NCBI GenBank assembly: GCA_965217865.1
Contig: CBDCJO010000002.1
Span: forward strand, 1,632,001 to 1,696,000
Length of the DNA stretch: 64,000 bases
Direction: 5' to 3'
From: Candidatus Latescibacterota bacterium
Lineage (GTDB): Bacteria > Latescibacterota > UBA2968 > SICM01
The notes beneath the pieces were generated by a model that was not told where the DNA came from, did not search any database, and was given only the letters and a program-made list of their open reading frames with translations. The translations under genes were made by a program, and so were the position numbers. Below are positions 16,807 to 29,195 of the stretch, in pieces; the stretch's first letter is position 1, and every line of letters begins with the position of its first letter.

Positions 16807-17073
16807 AAACGTGAGAGTCTTTGAGAATTTAGATGGGATTCGATCCTTGAAATATTAATAAATCCGCCAAGTGTTGTCGACCGAAGATATTGGTCGGGAA
16901 ACGTGAAACGTGAGACGGGAAAGGCAGTGGCAGGTGGCTGTATCAGGAAAGCCAAAGGCAGGGAACGGAGGAAATTGAAGATCAAAGAGATCAAGAAGAC
17001 CACAATAAAGTTCTGGGTTGGTTAAATATTCAATATTTAATGAATTTGCCCTTGTGTTCCGATTAGTTTCACC

Positions 17074-20272: not shown

Positions 20273-21265
20273 GTGGAACTTAACTGGTACTGGGGGGCGG
20301 CCATTCTCGGGTTGGGGGCGTTCTGGATCCAACTGATATTGTCTTTCCGTGCACGGGCAAACAAGATGAAGCCTCAGGGTGAAAAGATCAAGAAAGCTCT
20401 TTCAGAAATGGAGGCGAATACCCAAGAAGCCCGACAGGAAGCCGATGAGACCCGGAAGCGGATCGAAGAGATGGAGAAAGCGTTCGAGGTCGCAGATCAG
20501 AAACGCCTGGATGTGATAGGTAGGCTAGACCGTTATCAGATGGTCCTGATACCGGCCGGGGATTGTCGAATCGGGAGTTCTGACGGGCCGAAACACGAAC
20601 AACCTAACCATCATGTGCATCTCGATGGATTCCTTATCGACCGTTATCCCGTAACGAACGTCCAGTACAAACAATACTTAGACATTACCGGACAAAAGAC
20701 GCCGCCCCATTGGTTTGGGGGCACCTATCCGATAGAACAGGCCAACCACCCTGTTGTCAACGTGGGTTTTCAGGAAGCCCGCGACTTTGCGGAATGGATG
20801 GGGAAACGCCTTCCTACTGAGGCCGAGTGGGAGAAAGCCGCCCGAGGGCCGGACGGGCGGACTTATCCATGGGGGGTTGCTTTCCACAAGGAGCGCCTGA
20901 ATAGTGGGAACGATCCGGGTCAGACTACACCCGTTGATAAATACCGGGATGGAGGAAGCCAATATGGTGTGATGGACATGTGTGGAAATGTGTCGGAATG
21001 GACCGTAGATTGGTACGATGAGGAGTATTACAAGGAATCACCGTCTTCAAACCCGGAAGGACCCGAGACGGGGAAATTCAAAGTCATCAAGGGGGGATTT
21101 TTCGGTGAAACCATCATGGGTGTCAGGGCGGCCTGCCGTGCATTCTATCCACCCGCCAACGGTCGAGACAATCTGGGATTCAGATGCGCCAAAACCCCGG
21201 GCGAGAAACCTCCCAAACCTCAAGATAAAGAGAAATCTTCTTCCCAACCCGAAAAACGTGAATAA
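20273..21265 (+). CDS. SUMF1/EgtB/PvdO (FGE-like) domain protein with N-terminal TM and coiled coil
   Basis: PVTN.QY, HPVVNV, RLPTEAEWEKAARG, DMCGNVSEW, LGFRC. No catalytic FGE cysteine pair. Confidence 0.88.
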   Translation: MELNWYWGAAILGLGAFWIQLILSFRARANKMKPQGEKIKKALSEMEANTQEARQEADETRKRIEEMEKAFEVADQKRLDVIGRLDRYQMVLIPAGDCRIGSSDGPKHEQPNHHVHLDGFLIDRYPVTNVQYKQYLDITGQKTPPHWFGGTYPIEQANHPVVNVGFQEARDFAEWMGKRLPTEAEWEKAARGPDGRTYPWGVAFHKERLNSGNDPGQTTPVDKYRDGGSQYGVMDMCGNVSEWTVDWYDEEYYKESPSSNPEGPETGKFKVIKGGFFGETIMGVRAACRAFYPPANGRDNLGFRCAKTPGEKPPKPQDKEKSSSQPEKRE

Positions 21266-21315
21266 CGATATCGATTATCACCTCGCGAAAGGGATCGGTT
21301 CCTGTTATTTTCGGT

Positions 21316-21420
21316 TTAATCCATGGGGACCCGATCTCGAGCGCTCCCCTTTGCCTTATAGAGTTCCTCGTCGGCAAAACGAAGAAGCTCCTCAGGCGAA
21401 GTAACACCCTCTTCCTCTAG
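21316..21420 (-). pseudogene. C-terminal remnant of a GGDEF (diguanylate cyclase) domain
   Basis: Translates LEEEGVTSPEELLRFADEELYKAKGSARDRVPMD*, matching the GGDEF C-terminal consensus LL..AD.ALY.AK..GRNRV. Cut at the IS end. Confidence 0.7.
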
Positions 21421-22584
21421 TGTTATAACCCAGGAATAACTTGACAAAGTAATGGATTCGTCTTATGGTTCCTTATGCCCTTATCCAAGGAGGAACCGAT
21501 GAAAATGGGACGTCCATTGCAGCCATTGAACCTTAGTGATGAAGTCCGAAGTGAATTGAAGGCGATATCTGGTTCGCGGATCTTACCGCATTCTTTGGTG
21601 CGCCGTGCGAAGATCATACTGATGAGTGATATCGGACTCACGAATCTACAGATAGGCCAGAAGCTGGGACTGTCCTATGCCACGATTGGGAAATGGCGTA
21701 ATCGTTATTGTGCTCAAGGGCTGATGGGGCTTTACGACGAGATGCGTCCTGGAGGTCCACGTTCAATCTCCGACCAGAAGATTGCCAGGCTCATTGGCAA
21801 AACCTTGAAGACAAAGCCAAGGCATGCAACTCACTGGACCTGTCGGTCCATCGGAGCTGAGACTGGGCTCTCCAAGTCCACCGTTCAGCGAGTCTGGAAA
21901 GCCTTCGGACTTCAACCTCATCGACAGAAACACTTCAGACTCTCAAACGATCCCTTCTTTGTAGAGAAGGTCAGGGACGTTGTCGGGCTCTACCTCAACC
22001 CGCCAGACAATGCTATGGTGCTCTGTGTGGACGAGAAAAGCCAGGTCCAAGCATTAGATCGAACGCAACCGATTCTGCCACTGGGTTTGGGTTACGTCGA
22101 AGGCGTAACTCACAACTACATCAGACACGGGACAACGACGCTGTTTGCTGCTCTAGAGATCGCCTCGGGAAAAGTGTTAACACAATGTAAACCGAGACAC
22201 CGTCATCAGGAATTCCTTCAATTCCTAAAGCACATCGAGGCAAACGTCCCGGAGGATCTCGATATTCACCTGGTCTTGGACAACTATGGCACGCACAAGC
22301 ACCCTAAAACCAAACAATGGCTTGCAGCCCGGCCAAGATATCAGGTCCACTATACACCCACTTACGCGTCCTGGCTAAACCAAGTCGAGATCTGGTTCAA
22401 CATCATTACACAAAAGGCAATCCGCCGGGGTTCCTTTCGTAGCGTGAAAGATCTGGTCAATAACATCAAGAAATTCGCCGATCACTACAACTCAAATTCA
22501 AAACCCTTTGTGTGGACTGCCACCGCAGAATCCATCCTCGAAAAGATTAAGCGACTATTTGAACTTATTGGCGGGACACGACAC
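21420..22584 (+). mobile_element. IS630-family insertion sequence
   Basis: Imperfect terminal IRs (GTGTTATAACCCAGGAATAACTT / GTGTCGTGTCCCGCCAATAAGTT), CTAG/TA at both ends, intact transposase. Confidence 0.92.
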
Positions 22585-22587
22585 TAG
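21475..22587 (+). CDS. IS630 transposase
   Basis: HTH, then VDEKSQ, YIRHGT, LDNYGTH, WLNQVEIWF (DDE). Stop codon lies in the right end. Confidence 0.96.
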   Translation: MPLSKEEPMKMGRPLQPLNLSDEVRSELKAISGSRILPHSLVRRAKIILMSDIGLTNLQIGQKLGLSYATIGKWRNRYCAQGLMGLYDEMRPGGPRSISDQKIARLIGKTLKTKPRHATHWTCRSIGAETGLSKSTVQRVWKAFGLQPHRQKHFRLSNDPFFVEKVRDVVGLYLNPPDNAMVLCVDEKSQVQALDRTQPILPLGLGYVEGVTHNYIRHGTTTLFAALEIASGKVLTQCKPRHRHQEFLQFLKHIEANVPEDLDIHLVLDNYGTHKHPKTKQWLAARPRYQVHYTPTYASWLNQVEIWFNIITQKAIRRGSFRSVKDLVNNIKKFADHYNSNSKPFVWTATAESILEKIKRLFELIGGTRH

Positions 22588-22957
22588 CGTAGGCAGTCCA
22601 TGCAGCAGTCTCAGTTACACCGGTTAAATAGCCTCGGATGACCATCTCAACTGGAAATACCGTTAGTTTTTTTCCTACGACTACATTTGGATCTGGAACA
22701 TCAATTATGTGATTTTGGATAATATCTTTTGTGTGTTCAAACCAGAATGCAGATGTTTGAGTTATAACCTGTCCTTTAAATGGAATGTGAGCAAGGCTTC
22801 TATCAAAGGCAGACAGTCTGTCGGTTGATATGAGGAATACTTTACCTTTGTCCTCATAAACATCTCTAACCTTGCCTTTGTATTTCGTTCCTAGTTTTAG
22901 GTTCGTTCCTGTTAGGGTCTGTCCGATTTGTTTTTTGATTATTTCTTCCGCTATCAA
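22585..22957 (-). pseudogene. purC: SAICAR synthetase 5' fragment, truncated by IS630
   Basis: GKVRDVY, STDRLSAFD, IPFKGQV, PVEMVIRGYLTG. TTG start after GGAGG; AT-rich. Confidence 0.88.
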
Positions 22958-23085
22958 TTTTCTTCCTCCAAAAAATTAGTGGTTTATTCAACTTTATAAC
23001 TAGTGATTATACTGCAAAAATGCGATATATCTCCGTCTATTCTGGAAATATACCGAAACAATGTCCAACAGCCTCTTTCCATGTT

Positions 23086-23214
23086 GCCTAACGTTCCGTG
23101 CCCACGAAACCGCCCCCTCCTTCAGGGCGGTTTGGGTCGAGCACTGGCAGTCGGTTTGCGCTGTTGTTCTTTGCAGACCGGATGCCAGGCGCAGCCGTGG
23201 GCACTTTGTTATAT
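23086..23214 (-). other. attC-like recombination site 1 (129 bp, branched palindrome)
   Basis: Minus strand ATATAAC...GTTAGGC. Stems GTGCCCACG/CGTGGGCAC and AAACCGCCC/GGGCGGTTT. Confidence 0.75.
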
Positions 23215-23296
23215 GACGTGCCGCCTGGGTGGTTGTGTGGGCTTGCAGGATGCCAAGCCTCGCGAAACAGACTTTCTTCAAAGAACCTTATGAAAG

Positions 23297-24007
23297 CTAG
23301 CATGCCCTAGCTATCCAGGCTGGAAGAGAGCCCACCAATCGAGTTAAGATGATTCTGGCATTCTCCTCAAAAATCCGAATATTCCCCTCATAAGCTTCCC
23401 CTCCACTGCCACCAACAAGATCTGAAACACCTCGCAAAATTAGACATTTTGTATTGTTGTGAGCTGCTACCCAGGCAATTGCTCCTGACTCCCAATCTCC
23501 CGCAACTGCACCAAACTTTGCCGTCAATTCGGGAATATCTTCCACCATAAGATCACGATCCCCAGAAACCAGAAACGTGCGATTCACTTCTTGAGGATAG
23601 GGTGGCACCAGCCAGGAGAGATCTACTTCAGTTGTGTAATATTCAACCGCGTCCTCGGCGTCCAGCATCTGCTCGATGATGTCATAGACGATTGTCCGTT
23701 CAACCAAGATGATGGTCCCTTTCTCAATCTTCCCTTCAAAACCACCGCAAGTACCAAGATTGACCAAAAGCAAAGGGGACCAACGATCAATAACATATTG
23801 GGTTGATGCTGCTGCTGAGATTTTTCCCCATCCACCTTGAAAGAAGAGAACGGACATAATATCTCCACTGACATCTAAATCAACTGAGAACCACTGCCCA
23901 TAAGGAGAAACAACCTTTTCTGCGTCTGGATATATTTCAGTGATCGCATTCCATTCGACAGTGGCAGAAATGATCACAATGACCTTGGATTCAGATGACT
24001 CATGCAT
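23297..24007 (-). CDS. MTA/SAH nucleosidase-like (nucleoside phosphorylase family), cassette gene
   Basis: GGWGKISAA, NLGTCGG, SGD, DWESGAIA, LRGVSD. Confidence 0.85.
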   Translation of the reverse strand: MHESSESKVIVIISATVEWNAITEIYPDAEKVVSPYGQWFSVDLDVSGDIMSVLFFQGGWGKISAAASTQYVIDRWSPLLLVNLGTCGGFEGKIEKGTIILVERTIVYDIIEQMLDAEDAVEYYTTEVDLSWLVPPYPQEVNRTFLVSGDRDLMVEDIPELTAKFGAVAGDWESGAIAWVAAHNNTKCLILRGVSDLVGGSGGEAYEGNIRIFEENARIILTRLVGSLPAWIARAC

Positions 24008-24054
24008 GTTCAGGTCAAATCCACTCTCAGTATATGTTTCTTTTGCGGCATGTC

Positions 24055-24184
24055 ATATAACGTCCTGCAAGGCTCCCGAAATGGCCACGTCTGCAAAAGG
24101 ATTAATTGTTTCTCAATAAGCAAGAGTGGTAAACTCGTGGCCATTTGGGTCGAGTGTAAGCGAGCCGGGAGCGTGCTGTTATGC
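24055..24184 (-). other. attC-like recombination site 2 (130 bp, branched palindrome)
   Basis: Minus strand GCATAAC...GTTATAT. Stems GCTCCCG/CGGGAGC and AAATGGCCACG/CGTGGCCATTT. Shares TTTGGGTCGAG with site 1. Confidence 0.75.
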
Positions 24185-24343
24185 GAAGCTGGCGCGGCCC
24201 CCTTCACGCGAAGCCTTCAAGGGGGCCAACATACAGCGCACAACATAGGCAATGGTTTTTCTTTTCTTGTTTTGTTACACCCGGCGTCAACTGCAACGGC
24301 TTGATAGGAGAGCGATGGTTTGAATGGAACACGGATCATTCCA

Positions 24344-24898
24344 TTACGCATCAGAAGGTCCCGGTTCCCATCCAGTATTTGCAGCCCACTGATCAGCTCT
24401 CGCGATGATCTCCCAGAAAATGTCGCTCTTGGAATCGGTGTATTTCTCACGCTCGTCTCGATATCGTTGTGCCAGCTCTTTTTTCTCGGACTCGTATTTC
24501 TCACAATCTTGCTTGTGCACCCGCATGTAATCGCGAAATAAGAGTGGAAACTGCTGGTGCCAGCTGCCGAGTTTTCTGACATGGACGTGCGTTCTTTTCA
24601 TCCTCTGGGTCTCACGAAAATAACGCTTTGTCTTCTCGTATTTCTTTCCCTTTCGCCAGTAATATCCCAGTTTCTCGAGAGGAGTTAGAAATAGCTCAAC
24701 TGGCTCAAGACTCTCGACCGAAATCTGGATATCGATAATCGGTTTTGCAGCAAGGCCGGGTATAGAGGTTGACCCGATGTGATCAATCCTCAGTGCAATC
24801 TCACCCAGAGCGCTTCGCATCTTCTTTCCGATCTCCTCAAATTCCTGTGGCCATTGTGGAGTATAAGGATGGATTTCTATGGGCTCAGGGCATATCAT
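24344..24898 (-). CDS. GrpB/UPF0157 family nucleotidyltransferase-fold protein, cassette gene
   Basis: HIGSTSIPGLAAKPIIDI, HVHV, LLFRDY, Y...K. Confidence 0.9.
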   Translation of the reverse strand: MICPEPIEIHPYTPQWPQEFEEIGKKMRSALGEIALRIDHIGSTSIPGLAAKPIIDIQISVESLEPVELFLTPLEKLGYYWRKGKKYEKTKRYFRETQRMKRTHVHVRKLGSWHQQFPLLFRDYMRVHKQDCEKYESEKKELAQRYRDEREKYTDSKSDIFWEIIARADQWAANTGWEPGPSDA

Positions 24899-25012
24899 CT
24901 TGTTGTCTCTTAACTATTGCCTATGCGGAAGAGGCTCAGAATATATCAGTTCGCCGTAGAATAATTCAAGATGGGGTCGTTGGTTGTTGGGTTTTGCCTT
25001 TGCGCCAGTTTT

Positions 25013-25066
25013 GCATAACTTACGGTATTCCCGAACTTCTACGTAGATTCCTTAATTTCGGGATAT
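25013..25066 (-). other. attI-like site downstream of the integrase
   Basis: First cassette starts at GTTATGC (25019 on minus). Preceded by inverted repeat TCCCGAA/TTCGGGA and not by a full attC. Confidence 0.55.
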
Positions 25067-25171
25067 TCCCCGCCCTTCGCAGATACCTCCCCACGAAGAA
25101 GATACCGGTATATGTTCGTGAATGCCTTGCTATAGGAGAAATCGTTTTTAGGATGAACTCACCTTTGACGG

Positions 25172-26279
25172 TTACATTAAACTATCCAGAGGACTCTGAA
25201 TCTTACCGATATCTCGGGTTGTGACCCTGGTGTAGATTTCGGTGGTCTTAGAACTCTTATGTCCTAATAATTCTTGAATATAACGCAAATCCGTTCCCCG
25301 TTCAAGCAAATGAGTAGCGAAGGAATGCCGCAAGGTATGCACCGACACAGTCTTCTCTATTCCTGCCTTCACATATGCCCGTTGGAATATCTTTTGGACC
25401 GAACGCTCGTGGAGGTGCCGCCCTGGACGGAAACCCAGGGAAAAGCCAAAGCCTGGGTTGGTATTTCTTGACATATACTCGTAACGCCTCCAGCGCAACT
25501 CTGGAAAGCATGGTATAACGGCCCTTCCTTCTTTTGCCCTGCCGAATATGGATTAGATTTCGATTGGGATCTATGTCCTCTGACCTTAATCGGACCACCT
25601 CACCCAGACGAAGTCCACCGGAGTATGTCAACAACAAAATCGCCCGGTGTTTAGGGTTCCCGACTGCATCCAGGATTCGAATGACTTCTTCGCGACTCAT
25701 GATATTGGGCAATTTTCGTTCCTTTTTGGGACGAGGAAGATTTTCAACGGGAAATGGATACTTCAAGACTTTATTGTAGAGGAATTTCAATGCGCTCACG
25801 CATTGGTTAACATAGCTGTGTGAAGCACCTTTTTCGAGCAAATCATAAACATATTGTCGAACTTCATCCTCCCCCAGGGACTCGGTATCAATTTCATAAC
25901 ACCGAAAATACCTTTCTGCATGTCCAAGGTAAGATTTTCTCGTCTTTGCTCGGTAGCCTCGAAGCCTCAATTCCTGCGCCATTTTAATTAAATGGCCCAC
26001 TGGCTTCGCTGCTGGGATCCGCGAGAAATCCCCTGGATTGCGGAGCGATCTTTCAACCTGAATCCTCTCGCCCTCGAAAAGAATCAATAAGCTTTCCACA
26101 ATCCCCTCCGTGTGGGGCACAGTCCAACATTTTATGTCTGGATCCCAGCGCCGACCCGGGATGCTCTTAATCTTCAGCACACGGTCCGGGGTATAGGGTA
26201 GGTGAACCTTGAGATATCCATTACCTTGCGAACTGATGTAAATGGGTTCTTGGGATAGCCTGACCTGTTGCTTTTCCAT
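25172..26279 (-). pseudogene. Tyrosine recombinase/integrase (SAM-like N-domain plus catalytic domain), +1 frameshift near 25430-25433
   Basis: GLRLGE, HTLRHSFATHLLE, IQELLGH, TTEIYT split across ORFs 25302-26351 and 25172-25498. ATG at 26279 after AAGGAGG. Confidence 0.9.
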
Positions 26280-26547
26280 TGGACCTCCTTCGCGATGGGT
26301 TTTTGTTGATGAAGGCTTAACAAATCGCGTGCCTGGAGGCCATGGCTGCATTTGGTGCGACTACTCCGTTTATATACAGGTATTAACCGATCTGGGAATT
26401 TGGGAGGAATTCTCCGGTGGTGAACTCGATTTTCATTCAGGGGGTTGTTGGCGGGAATGATTCTTTCAGGGCTTCTTTCGAATCCGCTCCAGACGGTTTT
26501 TCAGCATATACAATACGTCATAATTAATTGCGCACACCGGAAGGGCC

Positions 26548-26828
26548 GTGAAACGTCAGACGGGAAAAGCAGTGGCAGTGGCAGGAAAAGGCAAAGGCAG
26601 AGGTCGGAGGTCAGAGGTCAGGGGAAAAGCAGTAGCAAGAAAGGCAAAGGCATCCCGAGCGTCAGGGGTCAGAGGTCAGAGGCCAGGGAAAAGAAAAACC
26701 GTGAAACGTGATACGGCAAAAAAGGCAGTAGCAGTAGCAGGAAAAGCGAAGGCAGAAGCAAGCAAGACCCTTTCGCCCCTCCCCACCGGAATACAGAATA
26801 CAGAAGAAGACATAAATTCAACTCAGCC
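26548..26828. repeat. Mosaic of short intergenic repeats (GAGGTCA/GGGGTCA, GCAGTR, GTGARAC, CAGAATA)
   Basis: The same motifs recur at about 16900, 40820-41080, 42830-43040, 44310-44400, 45690-45770, 48150-48250, 53960-54090 and 56160-56220. Confidence 0.85.
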
Positions 26829-26899
26829 TGCGAGCCCGTTGACGCGAAACTCTCCGGAAAATATGCGCAATTACTTATGTCGTTAATGAATATTAAAAA

Positions 26900-27029
26900 C
26901 CAGGGCAGCTGACACAAACTTAGGTAGGCGCTCCCTTATGGGATTAAATGGCTATAAGCCTTTGTCCTGACACCCCAGGCTTTCCCAACCTAATACCTGG
27001 TATTTGGACTCGGTGTTCAACTGCCCTGG
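26900..27029. mobile_element. Putative MITE (130 bp)
   Basis: Terminal inverted repeats CCAGGGCAGCTGACAC / GTGTTCAACTGCCCTGG. Confidence 0.5.
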
Positions 27030-27066
27030 CATTTACATTGGAGAGGACTTTGCATCCACCAATTTA

Positions 27067-27195
27067 TTACGGTTTCTTTATATGGCGAATGTTTTTCCTG
27101 CTGGTCGCCTTAAACCCTCTCTTATCAAACTGCTTTTGCTTCCTCTTTCCAACATCACTTGACGTGTGCCGCTTCTCCCTCTTTATGGCTGCCAT
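27067..27195 (-). CDS. Putative 42-aa highly basic small protein
   Basis: ATG preceded by GGAG. MAAIKREKRHTSSDVGKRKQKQFDKRGFKATSRKNIRHIKKP*. Confidence 0.45.
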   Translation of the reverse strand: MAAIKREKRHTSSDVGKRKQKQFDKRGFKATSRKNIRHIKKP

Positions 27196-27349
27196 AACGG
27201 ACTCCATTAGAAAATGGGTGGAAATTGAGTGTGGGCAGAACTTAATTCGATGACGCGAAGTATTCTCTTAGTTATCAGATTCAATGATCCTCTACTAAAG
27301 ATAAGGGTTTAGAGGAAAGGATAAAATAAAAATCCACGGCCATAAAGGC

Positions 27350-27655
27350 CGTGGATCGTGATTCGGGGATCTGGAAACCAGTGGATCAGAGAATCCGGGG
27401 TTCGTGGATCGTGATTCGGGGATCGGGAAGGCCGTGGTTCGTGGATCGTGATTCGGGAAACCAGGGGATCGGAGAATCCGGGGTTCGTGGATCGTGATTC
27501 GGGGTTCGAAAAGGCGACGGACAAGCTTTTTCATACAAGTGGAAAAATTGAATCGTAATACTGATACAGATAAGCGATAACGAGCAGGTGCGAATCACGA
27601 GAAGATTCGGGGATCGGGAAGGCCGTGGTTCATGGATCGTGATTCGTGATTCGGG
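27350..27655. repeat. Direct-repeat cluster CGTGGATCGTGATTCGGG (4 exact copies plus variants)
   Basis: Copies at 27350, 27403, 27440 and 27486. Related motifs at about 37180-37260, 43000-43035 and 56560-56590. Confidence 0.9.
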
Positions 27656-27686
27656 ATACCAGGGAGTCGTGTTCGGCCTTGAATCT

Positions 27687-28715
27687 TCAATACCTCTTTG
27701 CGTATCCCTTTTTCAGAAGCTCCCCGTTTAAAAACCGCCCGTTTCTCAGCGCATCTTCCGCCGCCCCTTTTCCCGGCAGGTAAAACAGGTCCGCCAGATA
27801 CCGGTCGTACTTGTCCGGCTTCGTCGTAGTGACTGCCACAGATGTATTTGCTGATAGCGCTGACGCCACGAATGCCCTGGCCTGCTGACCCTCCCTGGTC
27901 CGAAGTTCGGGCGTGTCGATCCCTCTAAGCCGCACTTTCTGTCGAGTCCAAACCTGGAATCCGCAGTCCACGTCCAGCCATATGGTGTCGCCGTCGATCA
28001 CGCGCTCCACGTACGCCAGGTAGGAGTAAAAGGCTGCCCGCGTATCGCTGACCTCCAGAAGCCTGAAAACCGGTTCGCCGTCACCCGGACCCCGAACCGC
28101 CTCCACGAGCGTGCCTTCTTGGGGATTATCGAGCCGATCCAGCGGCCTTTTTAGAAGGATTCCGAACCCCAGATCCAGGCGGAGGCCCCTTCCCCCCGGA
28201 GTTTCTATCAGTCGGTAGGTCCAGGGCTGTCCCCGCTTGGCCCGGAGTCGTGCCACCGGACTCTGTTGCGGTTGCTTAAGGCTCTTTGGGGGGAGAGAAC
28301 AAGCGTGGATCTGGGCGGCCAGTTCCCGGGTGCTCCAACCGTATCTATCTGCTTTCTGAGCAAGGAGATACCGTTCGTCATCAGACGGCAGTTTTATCAG
28401 TCTTCGGTAGTGCGTCCAGGTCAATTTTGAACGCGCGTGCAGAATTGGAAACGACCGGTGAAACCGAAGAGATTCATACAAAATCCTCTCGCTGATCCCC
28501 ACGTCCTTCGCCATCCTGGCAATCACCTGATCTCCGTAACCAGCCTTGGCCTTGATGGCAAGCAAATGCGCCTGGATCAATCCCCCAACCTCCCAGTAGG
28601 TCCTGACCTTTTCCCGTTCCACTGCCTGACGAGCCCGTTCCTTCCCCGCACTTAGAACCTTTGCGACTTCGCCGCGTAAGGCACTGTAGGTATTTACGAT
28701 AGGGAAATTAGGCAT
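27687..28715 (-). CDS. DUF1016 N-terminal (YhcG-like) domain fused to a thermonuclease (SNase) domain
   Basis: YWEVG, YGDQVI, LTWTHY, WSTREL in the N-terminus; VIDGDT, VRLRGIDTPE, DKYDRYLA, LLKKGYA in the C-terminus. Confidence 0.85.
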   Translation of the reverse strand: MPNFPIVNTYSALRGEVAKVLSAGKERARQAVEREKVRTYWEVGGLIQAHLLAIKAKAGYGDQVIARMAKDVGISERILYESLRFHRSFPILHARSKLTWTHYRRLIKLPSDDERYLLAQKADRYGWSTRELAAQIHACSLPPKSLKQPQQSPVARLRAKRGQPWTYRLIETPGGRGLRLDLGFGILLKRPLDRLDNPQEGTLVEAVRGPGDGEPVFRLLEVSDTRAAFYSYLAYVERVIDGDTIWLDVDCGFQVWTRQKVRLRGIDTPELRTREGQQARAFVASALSANTSVAVTTTKPDKYDRYLADLFYLPGKGAAEDALRNGRFLNGELLKKGYAKRY

Positions 28716-29195
28716 CGGGACAGAAGCAGAATAATATAGTGGTAGTAACCGCTCAGTTAAAGTGGTTCTTTCGGCGGTGCCAAGATGGGCCGCCGAACGG
28801 GACAGTGATGAGCGGTTAACGAGTTCAATGGCTCACGAACCCGCGTCTGACCCTTTCTTTGTCTCAGAATTACGCGCAGGACAAAATTCATCCCTCAGTT
28901 CCCGGTCCCTTTACCCTATTACGGGTTTCGCTTCGCCGCATCCAAAAAAAGATGTGCGGTTTTTGCGTAGAAGCATCGCGCGGGTAATGAATTCACGAAC
29001 TACGAATATAATGTCCCCCGCAGCCGGACTTTTTTCCCCAACCCATCTCCGTCCTTCGACTACGCAACGTTGACGCGCTGCTCCGCTCAGGATGTTTTCA
29101 TTATGGTTTATGATTCCCTTTACTAGCGGGGGGTCGCTTCGTCCAGACAAACCAAAAAATATATATGCTTTCCATTGAAGTTGTAAAGTAAGAAT

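Follow-up and report, generated by a model that had tools for sequence, protein, structure and literature searches.

The window, a stretch of 64,000 nucleotides from a Candidatus Latescibacterota bacterium, contains a small gene array beside a tyrosine recombinase that is related to the integron integrases (IntI) and lacks the IntI-specific insertion. The sequence evidence supports reading the two units of this array as integron-type cassettes that recombine at G^TT. A previous sequence-only reading had emphasized the length of the outer stem, in which the two ends of each cassette pair with each other. More telling than this length are a wobble at one fixed position (position 11) of the stem, a short asymmetric spacer, and a recombinase without the IntI insertion.

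All parts of the array lie on the minus strand, in the order recombinase, attI-like stretch, GrpB cassette, site, nucleosidase cassette, site, orphan start arm, and purC fragment. The recombinase gene (25172..26276) is transcribed towards the cassettes and overlaps an attI-like conserved region (25016..25203) with the crossover G^TT, the G being at 25019. Cassette 1 (24061..25018; 958 bp) opens with a start arm at 25002..25019 (A at position 11, 25009), carries a GrpB-family gene of 184 aa (24344..24898; PF04229, E 7.8e-50), and has its end arm, R'' included, at 24178..24195 (G at position 11, 24188). The inner hairpin of site 1 (24062..24177; 116 nt, predicted spacer 5 nt versus 1 nt) leads to R' (24045..24061; A at position 11, 24051), which is at the same time the start arm of cassette 2. 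This second cassette (23092..24060; 969 bp) contains an MTA/SAH-nucleosidase-like gene of 236 aa (23297..24007; PF01048, with NCBIfam matches below cut-off), an end arm, R'' included, at 23208..23224 (G at position 11, 23218), and, within site 2, an inner hairpin of 115 nt (23093..23207; predicted spacer 5 nt versus 3 nt). R' of site 2 (23075..23092) is the orphan start arm of a third unit. A search within the window found no partner for it; the start of this unit recurs in the same genome as an 83%-identical copy over 88 nt behind another site (C2:4502235). The purC fragment (22565-22957, minus strand; 130 codons) is interrupted by an IS630 element (21475-22587, plus strand) with nine near-identical full-length copies. 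The remainder of the interrupted gene was not seen, and another purC-like gene is located at C2:5499881. A scan of the region for Pc-type promoters gave 5 promoter-like sites compared with 4.9 expected; one sigma-70-like site (10/12) at 24029-24056 (minus strand) overlaps the start arm of cassette 2, with the regional count at chance level. An Rfam search of 21000-29000 returned nothing relevant.

The end matches described in the sequence-only reading were reproduced: 23208-23224 agrees with the reverse complement of 24045-24061 at 16/17 positions in the nucleosidase unit, and 24178-24195 with the reverse complement of 25002-25019 at 16/18 positions in the GrpB unit; in both units pairing ends after 17-18 bp. 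The cassette limits proposed there, 24061-25018 and 23092-24060, are correct, and the ends do pair within and not between cassettes, as the four non-cognate cross-pairings agree over the first 4-7 bases only. When circularized in silico, both junctions form the continuous outer stem of 17-18 bp that had been anticipated, on the bottom strand (the plus strand of the window), with folding energies of −41.5 and −50.1 kcal/mol compared with −29.5 and −34.7 kcal/mol in the linear context. Each of the three mismatches between the arms reads T·G in the bottom strand, which corresponds to A·C in the top strand. An insertion sequence with terminal inverted repeats was ruled out as an explanation of the units, whose cargo is GrpB and a nucleosidase and whose hairpin lies outside the paired arms. 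One strand of the genome was scanned for GTTA...TAAC pairs separated by 150-3000 nt; of the 37,871 pairs obtained, 21 reached at least 16/18, with 0.12 expected under a binomial model; five of the 21 were perfect (18/18), and among the pairs listed five such pairs continue to pair outward, like IS-type inverted repeats.

Unbiased cassette calling, based on the inner hairpin and the flanking tetramers alone and without use of the outer stem, yielded 35 sites and 10 attI-like copies in this genome. Twelve consecutive pairs served as the test set (one pair of 166 nt was dropped). At positions 8-18, cognate ends formed on average 7.92 of 11 possible Watson-Crick pairs (n = 12), compared with 4.03 for non-cognate ends, and none of 20,000 permutations attained the observed pairing sum. 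Position 11 was never Watson-Crick paired (0/12) and was G·T in 10/12, whereas positions 9 and 12 paired in 11/12. The cassette starts share the consensus GTTA-N3-G-M-M-A-T-G. Position 11 is an A in 41/45 starts and a G in 29/35 or a T in 6/35 ends, and positions 5-10 differ from cassette to cassette yet remain paired. Mean folding energies (n = 12) were −41.3 kcal/mol for the circular bottom strand, −36.8 kcal/mol for the circular top strand, and −31.6 kcal/mol for the linear bottom strand. Selection for pairing between neighbors was not seen, with 4.97 of 14 positions pairing in adjacent non-cognate ends and 4.68 in random ones (p = 0.18). In the array of a relative (G039; n = 9) the corresponding values for positions 8-18 were 6.22 of 11 and, for non-cognate ends, 3.67, and position 11 was G·T in 9/9. 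Other loci with short recombinases provided 31 consecutive pairs, of which 24 look cognate; A/G stands at position 11 in 21 of these 24. Such counts exceed the true number of events because related genomes are not independent.

The relatives' loci with canonical IntI gave too few sites for a control, and class 1/2 arrays from plasmids were used instead, for which automatic site calling was noisy. After removal of two near-duplicates from 15 rows, and with ends chosen for maximal match, this small control (n = 13, of which three or four rows are probably mis-assigned) paired at 4.08 of 11 positions 8-18, or at 4.5 of 11 without three rows (by hand). Position 11 was Watson-Crick paired in 6 of the cassettes, with no fixed wobble. 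Two of the 13 showed long contiguous pairing, over 12 bp in aac(6')-Ib and 13 bp in catB3. Hence, the outer stem called "unusually long" in the sequence-only reading does have 17-18 bp, but cognate pairing beyond 7 bp is in part ordinary. Because class 1 cassettes can also pair over 12-13 bp, stem length in itself is not new; what is new here is the regularity of the long pairing together with the fixed mismatch. Plain selection for folding could explain part of this pattern, since class 1 cassettes pair beyond 7 bp and attC bottom strands show a general excess of G:T pairs (1.24 vs 0.39 per site; PMC5027507).

The inner part of the sites has a geometry of its own. Bottom-strand folds were predicted for 47 sites, 35 from this genome and 12 from G039; in the former, but not in the latter, the first inner base was set by the filter. 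On the cleaved side, 28/47 predicted folds leave a spacer of 5 nt unpaired; on the opposite side, 38/47 leave 1-2 nt. Beyond the spacer, the predicted stem comprises ~10-11 bp, with bulges at varying places or absent and none at a fixed place. In classical attC sites, both arms have a spacer of 5-6 nt and the positions of the extrahelical bases are set (PMC5027507), a geometry from which the 47 predicted folds as a group depart. An 11-base motif is common to both inner hairpins of the window (24144-24154 and 23131-23141, minus strand). It is also present at several further sites in the genome, which points to inner frames that fall into families.

In the population sampled here, the recombinase gene of the window is frameshifted near 25425-25430. 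An assembly error was rejected as the cause, because contigs of four runs cross the site without gaps or indel. An intact allele (P0001) encodes 368 aa with 99% identity to the window copy. The protein has the Pfam domains PF13495 and PF00589, its best NCBIfam match is TIGR02249, far below cut-off, and its best solved relative is VchIntIA (2A3V). The IntI-specific insertion (I2 helix region) is absent, leaving about 41 residues fewer than in IntI1 and VchIntIA: the alignment has 41 gap residues relative to IntI1, query residues 265-287 span VchIntIA residues 176-240, and the motif spacing is 59 versus 100 residues. The missing region is the one that docks the extrahelical bases in IntI (PMC7790495). 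A structural model (pLDDT 90.4) had the archaeal Xer protein 4A8E as its top VIA-align match (Z 23.4, rmsd 10.3, 259 aligned), and model residues 11-81 matched the N-terminus of T4 UvsW (Z 8.1, rmsd 1.8, 62 aligned), which has been called a HARP domain (PMC4666394). For this N-terminal domain (26030-26250, minus strand) the Pfam HARP match is below cut-off (E 0.0018), and a single-sequence model (pLDDT 66.6; no match above Z 5.6) was uninformative. A HARP match at E 0.01 or better occurs in 21/108 relatives. The idea that this domain is the required reader of the wobble was rejected, because the wobble is also found beside HARP-less enzymes: among the cognate-looking pairs it is present in 17/19 next to HARP-bearing and in 4/5 next to HARP-less recombinases. 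Purine-rich short repeats lie 5' of the recombinase gene (26515-26900 and 27330-27670), and some of them recur at 16900, 31120, and 32940.

In a tree of 35 proteins, which included short enzymes, IntIs, and this genome's three Xer-like proteins, the short enzymes and the IntIs group apart from the Xer-like proteins (100/100). The IntI clade is placed inside the short type (92/91); monophyly of the short type is rejected with borderline significance (p-AU 0.044), and long branches are in play. Several short-type recombinases (L103, L106, and L119) have no sites nearby, and recombinase relatives are also encoded on plasmids of Bacteroidota and Clostridium. A Chryseobacterium plasmid carries two cassettes (L229 14449-16183) with end matches of 13/18 and A/G at position 11. 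No end match of this kind was seen in seven further intervals that were tested.

The claim that the units break at G^TT agrees with all ten attI-like copies in the genome, each of which diverges directly after ...GTAAG|TTA. For 8/10 copies, the first 18 bases after attI have a partner downstream that matches at 14-17/18, with the next best match at 10-11. No partner end was found for the first cassette of the copy at C2:4801588, and at C2:3803320 the ends of the first cassette match only with an offset of one base and enclose a long transposase-looking ORF. The nine further copies (C2 4999632, 4801588, 4235055, 3803320, 3496376, 2034718, 1990097, 1982755, and 1789439) each head a small array of their own, with recombinase fragments or none upstream, and two of the nine have the same internal deletion. 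This pattern suggests duplication and dispersal of the platform itself within the genome. Gene order is likewise not fixed, as homologous nucleosidase and GrpB cassettes have other neighbors in other genomes. A 52%-identical nucleosidase cassette (L223/L074) has near-identical ends and is flanked by HAD-like and methyltransferase-like genes (names by reading of the sequences), and a 59%-identical GrpB cassette (L209) lies behind an attC-like site, not behind attI. Most GrpB and nucleosidase homologues are ordinary genes and not cassettes: one of 80 nucleosidase loci reached 13/18, and wider searches added one of 10 nucleosidase loci, probably from the same genome as the former, and one of 8 GrpB loci, which is cassette-like with an offset missed by the ungapped score. 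Circle or reshuffling joints were not found in the contigs of four runs from two studies, a result that bears neither way because contigs drop rare forms; a loose contig end at 25014 belongs to a different attI copy within this genome.

Judged from its sequence, the system works like an integron and departs from the canonical family in two defining features, the insertion of the enzyme and the spacer with its extrahelical bases. As in the classical integrons of IntI1 and VchIntIA, a related tyrosine recombinase lies beside an attI-like site with a G^TT crossover; cassettes hold one gene, share one orientation, and are shuffled between arrays; and R'' (..AAC) and R' (GTT..) enclose a hairpin, with complementary cognate R' and R'' and a predicted bottom-strand bias. 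Unlike them, the enzyme lacks ~41 residues including the IntI insertion and in many members has a HARP-like extra domain, the outer stem of 14-18 bp has its G·T fixed at position 11, and in the predicted folds the spacer is 5 nt versus 1-2 nt without a fixed extrahelical base. Treponema-type integrons resemble the locus in a recombinase that is co-directional with the cassettes and an attI behind the 3' end of its gene, but the sites here lack the R/L-box and protruding-G geometry of that type, compared by its description (PMC3607928). XerC/XerD-dif shares the insertion-less catalytic domain, and the 11-base arm resembles the XerD arm of dif. In contrast to Xer/dif, the substrate here is predicted to be single-stranded and folded, with spacers of unequal length; there is one enzyme, cassettes form arrays, and the family groups with IntI. 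With regard to the two 11-bp arms around a 6-bp center of Xer/dif, one XerD-like arm and no matching second arm were seen. Recombinases without the (full) insertion have been reported before: one survey found 21 without the IntI domain near attC sites and judged them not to be IntI, four of them falling between IntI and Xer (PMC4889954), and in an "integron-like" subgroup the insertion was "not fully conserved" (PMC8138268). The accessible descriptions in both sources do not include arrays, long stems, or the wobble.

We consider it reasonably probable, on the basis of the sequence patterns, that the outer stem is a binding arm of Xer length and that its wobble selects the strand in place of the I2 helix and the extrahelical bases. 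Paired in a single-stranded cassette circle, the two ends would probably offer the insertion-less recombinase a double-stranded arm of full length to bind. The outer stem of the folded bottom strand would provide the arm of the cleaving subunit (~11 bp, TTA-N3-G-M-M-A-T, resembling Xer arms), and the inner stem of 10-11 bp would carry a second recombinase subunit. The A/G asymmetry at position 11 would select strand and direction: the bottom-strand hairpin (T·G) and the double-stranded arm of attI plus first cassette (A:T) retain a T at this position, which is missing from the top-strand hairpin (A·C) and the double-stranded far end (G:C). This asymmetry would thus do the job of extrahelical bases and I2 helix in classical integrons. 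Neighboring ends in a linear array tend to pair at positions 1-4, 8, and 11-13 only, and therefore insertion of circles would be favored over excision. The HARP-like domain may help to bind the junction of single and double strand, although the signature does not require it. When the 1980 11-mers of a 1-kb E. coli stretch were scored with a weight matrix of cassette-start positions 2-12, the XerD arm of dif had rank 1 and the XerC arm rank 3 (dif position from PMC2731167), a weak test with one stretch chosen for holding dif and a score driven partly by the invariant TTA. By eye, no motif matching the Xer-like arm was seen in the inner arm or the left arm of attI. Several points count against the proposal: the recombinase of the window is frameshifted, no more than fragments of it accompany the remaining nine attI copies, sites are missing near several short-type recombinases, and canonical IntIs are encoded in G039 and G011 as well.

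The first alternative is that these are ordinary attC sites served by a canonical IntI in trans, with the stem and wobble merely stabilizing the bottom-strand fold and the short recombinase being a bystander. The cognate extension of 8-13 bp in class 1 cassettes and the known bottom-strand G:T skew (PMC5027507) fit this explanation. Also in its favor, the completeness of the genome is 96%, and canonical IntIs were found in 7/41 genomes searched, two of which also encode a short one. However, this genome has no canonical IntI, the highest TIGR02249 score being 117.7 bits against a cut-off of 265. The short recombinase or its fragments run at their 3' end into attI-like DNA, and in many loci the arrays follow short recombinases, with arrays on the upstream side being rare. 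The wobble at one fixed position and a spacer geometry unlike that of canonical sites also speak against it, and we regard it as unlikely. The ends could instead pair across the gene in a linear single strand, so that a long-range stem, and not a local hairpin, defines the excised unit. In favor of this, the ends are private to each cassette, and pairing between adjacent non-cognate ends does not exceed that between random ends, so that the local linear site is without the full arm. Classical linear attC sites, however, excise despite mismatches beyond the core, pairing over ~900 nt competes with local folding, and selection on circles alone gives the same statistics, which makes the long-range stem distinctly improbable. 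That the pairing is a by-product of cassette birth without a role in recombination, one end being copied from the other or genes being placed in a reusable empty frame, accords with related start arms before different genes (the GrpB start arm recurs ahead of another gene at C2:1789439), but copying predicts perfect complementarity and not a one-position A/G mismatch across many genomes including a Bacteroidota plasmid, and positions 5-10 vary and stay paired, so that we give this idea very little credence.

There may be earlier work on "short" integron integrases, although our search did not find it. This search, mainly of open-access papers without supplements, found no wobble-marked long stems or arrays of insertion-less integrases, of which a description may nevertheless exist; the accessible text of PMC8618304 likewise contains nothing on such stems or arrays. 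Directly behind a truncated relative of the recombinase on an Acinetobacter plasmid lies tet(X3) (L230 6922-8131), in an interval with cassette-like ends (12/18) and A/G at position 11. Its placement may bear on where such resistance genes came from.

According to the accepted account, gain of the I2 helix let integrases recombine folded single strands, and intermediates are lacking (PMC7790495). In the standard survey, recombinases that lack the insertion and lie beside attC sites are not counted as IntI, and no complete integrons are reported from Firmicutes (PMC4889954). Returning to the wobble-marked binding arm, we tentatively suggest, at somewhat less than even confidence, that the locus represents a distinct and widespread class of integrons that needs no I2 helix, in which a Xer-like enzyme reads an 11-bp arm rebuilt from both cassette ends while strand and orientation depend on a single G·T wobble, and which is the living grade from which the classical IntIs arose. 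If this is true, current screens overlook a class of gene-capture platforms, and cassette arrays served by an insertion-less enzyme would be the missing intermediate, by which the origin of integrons would become testable.
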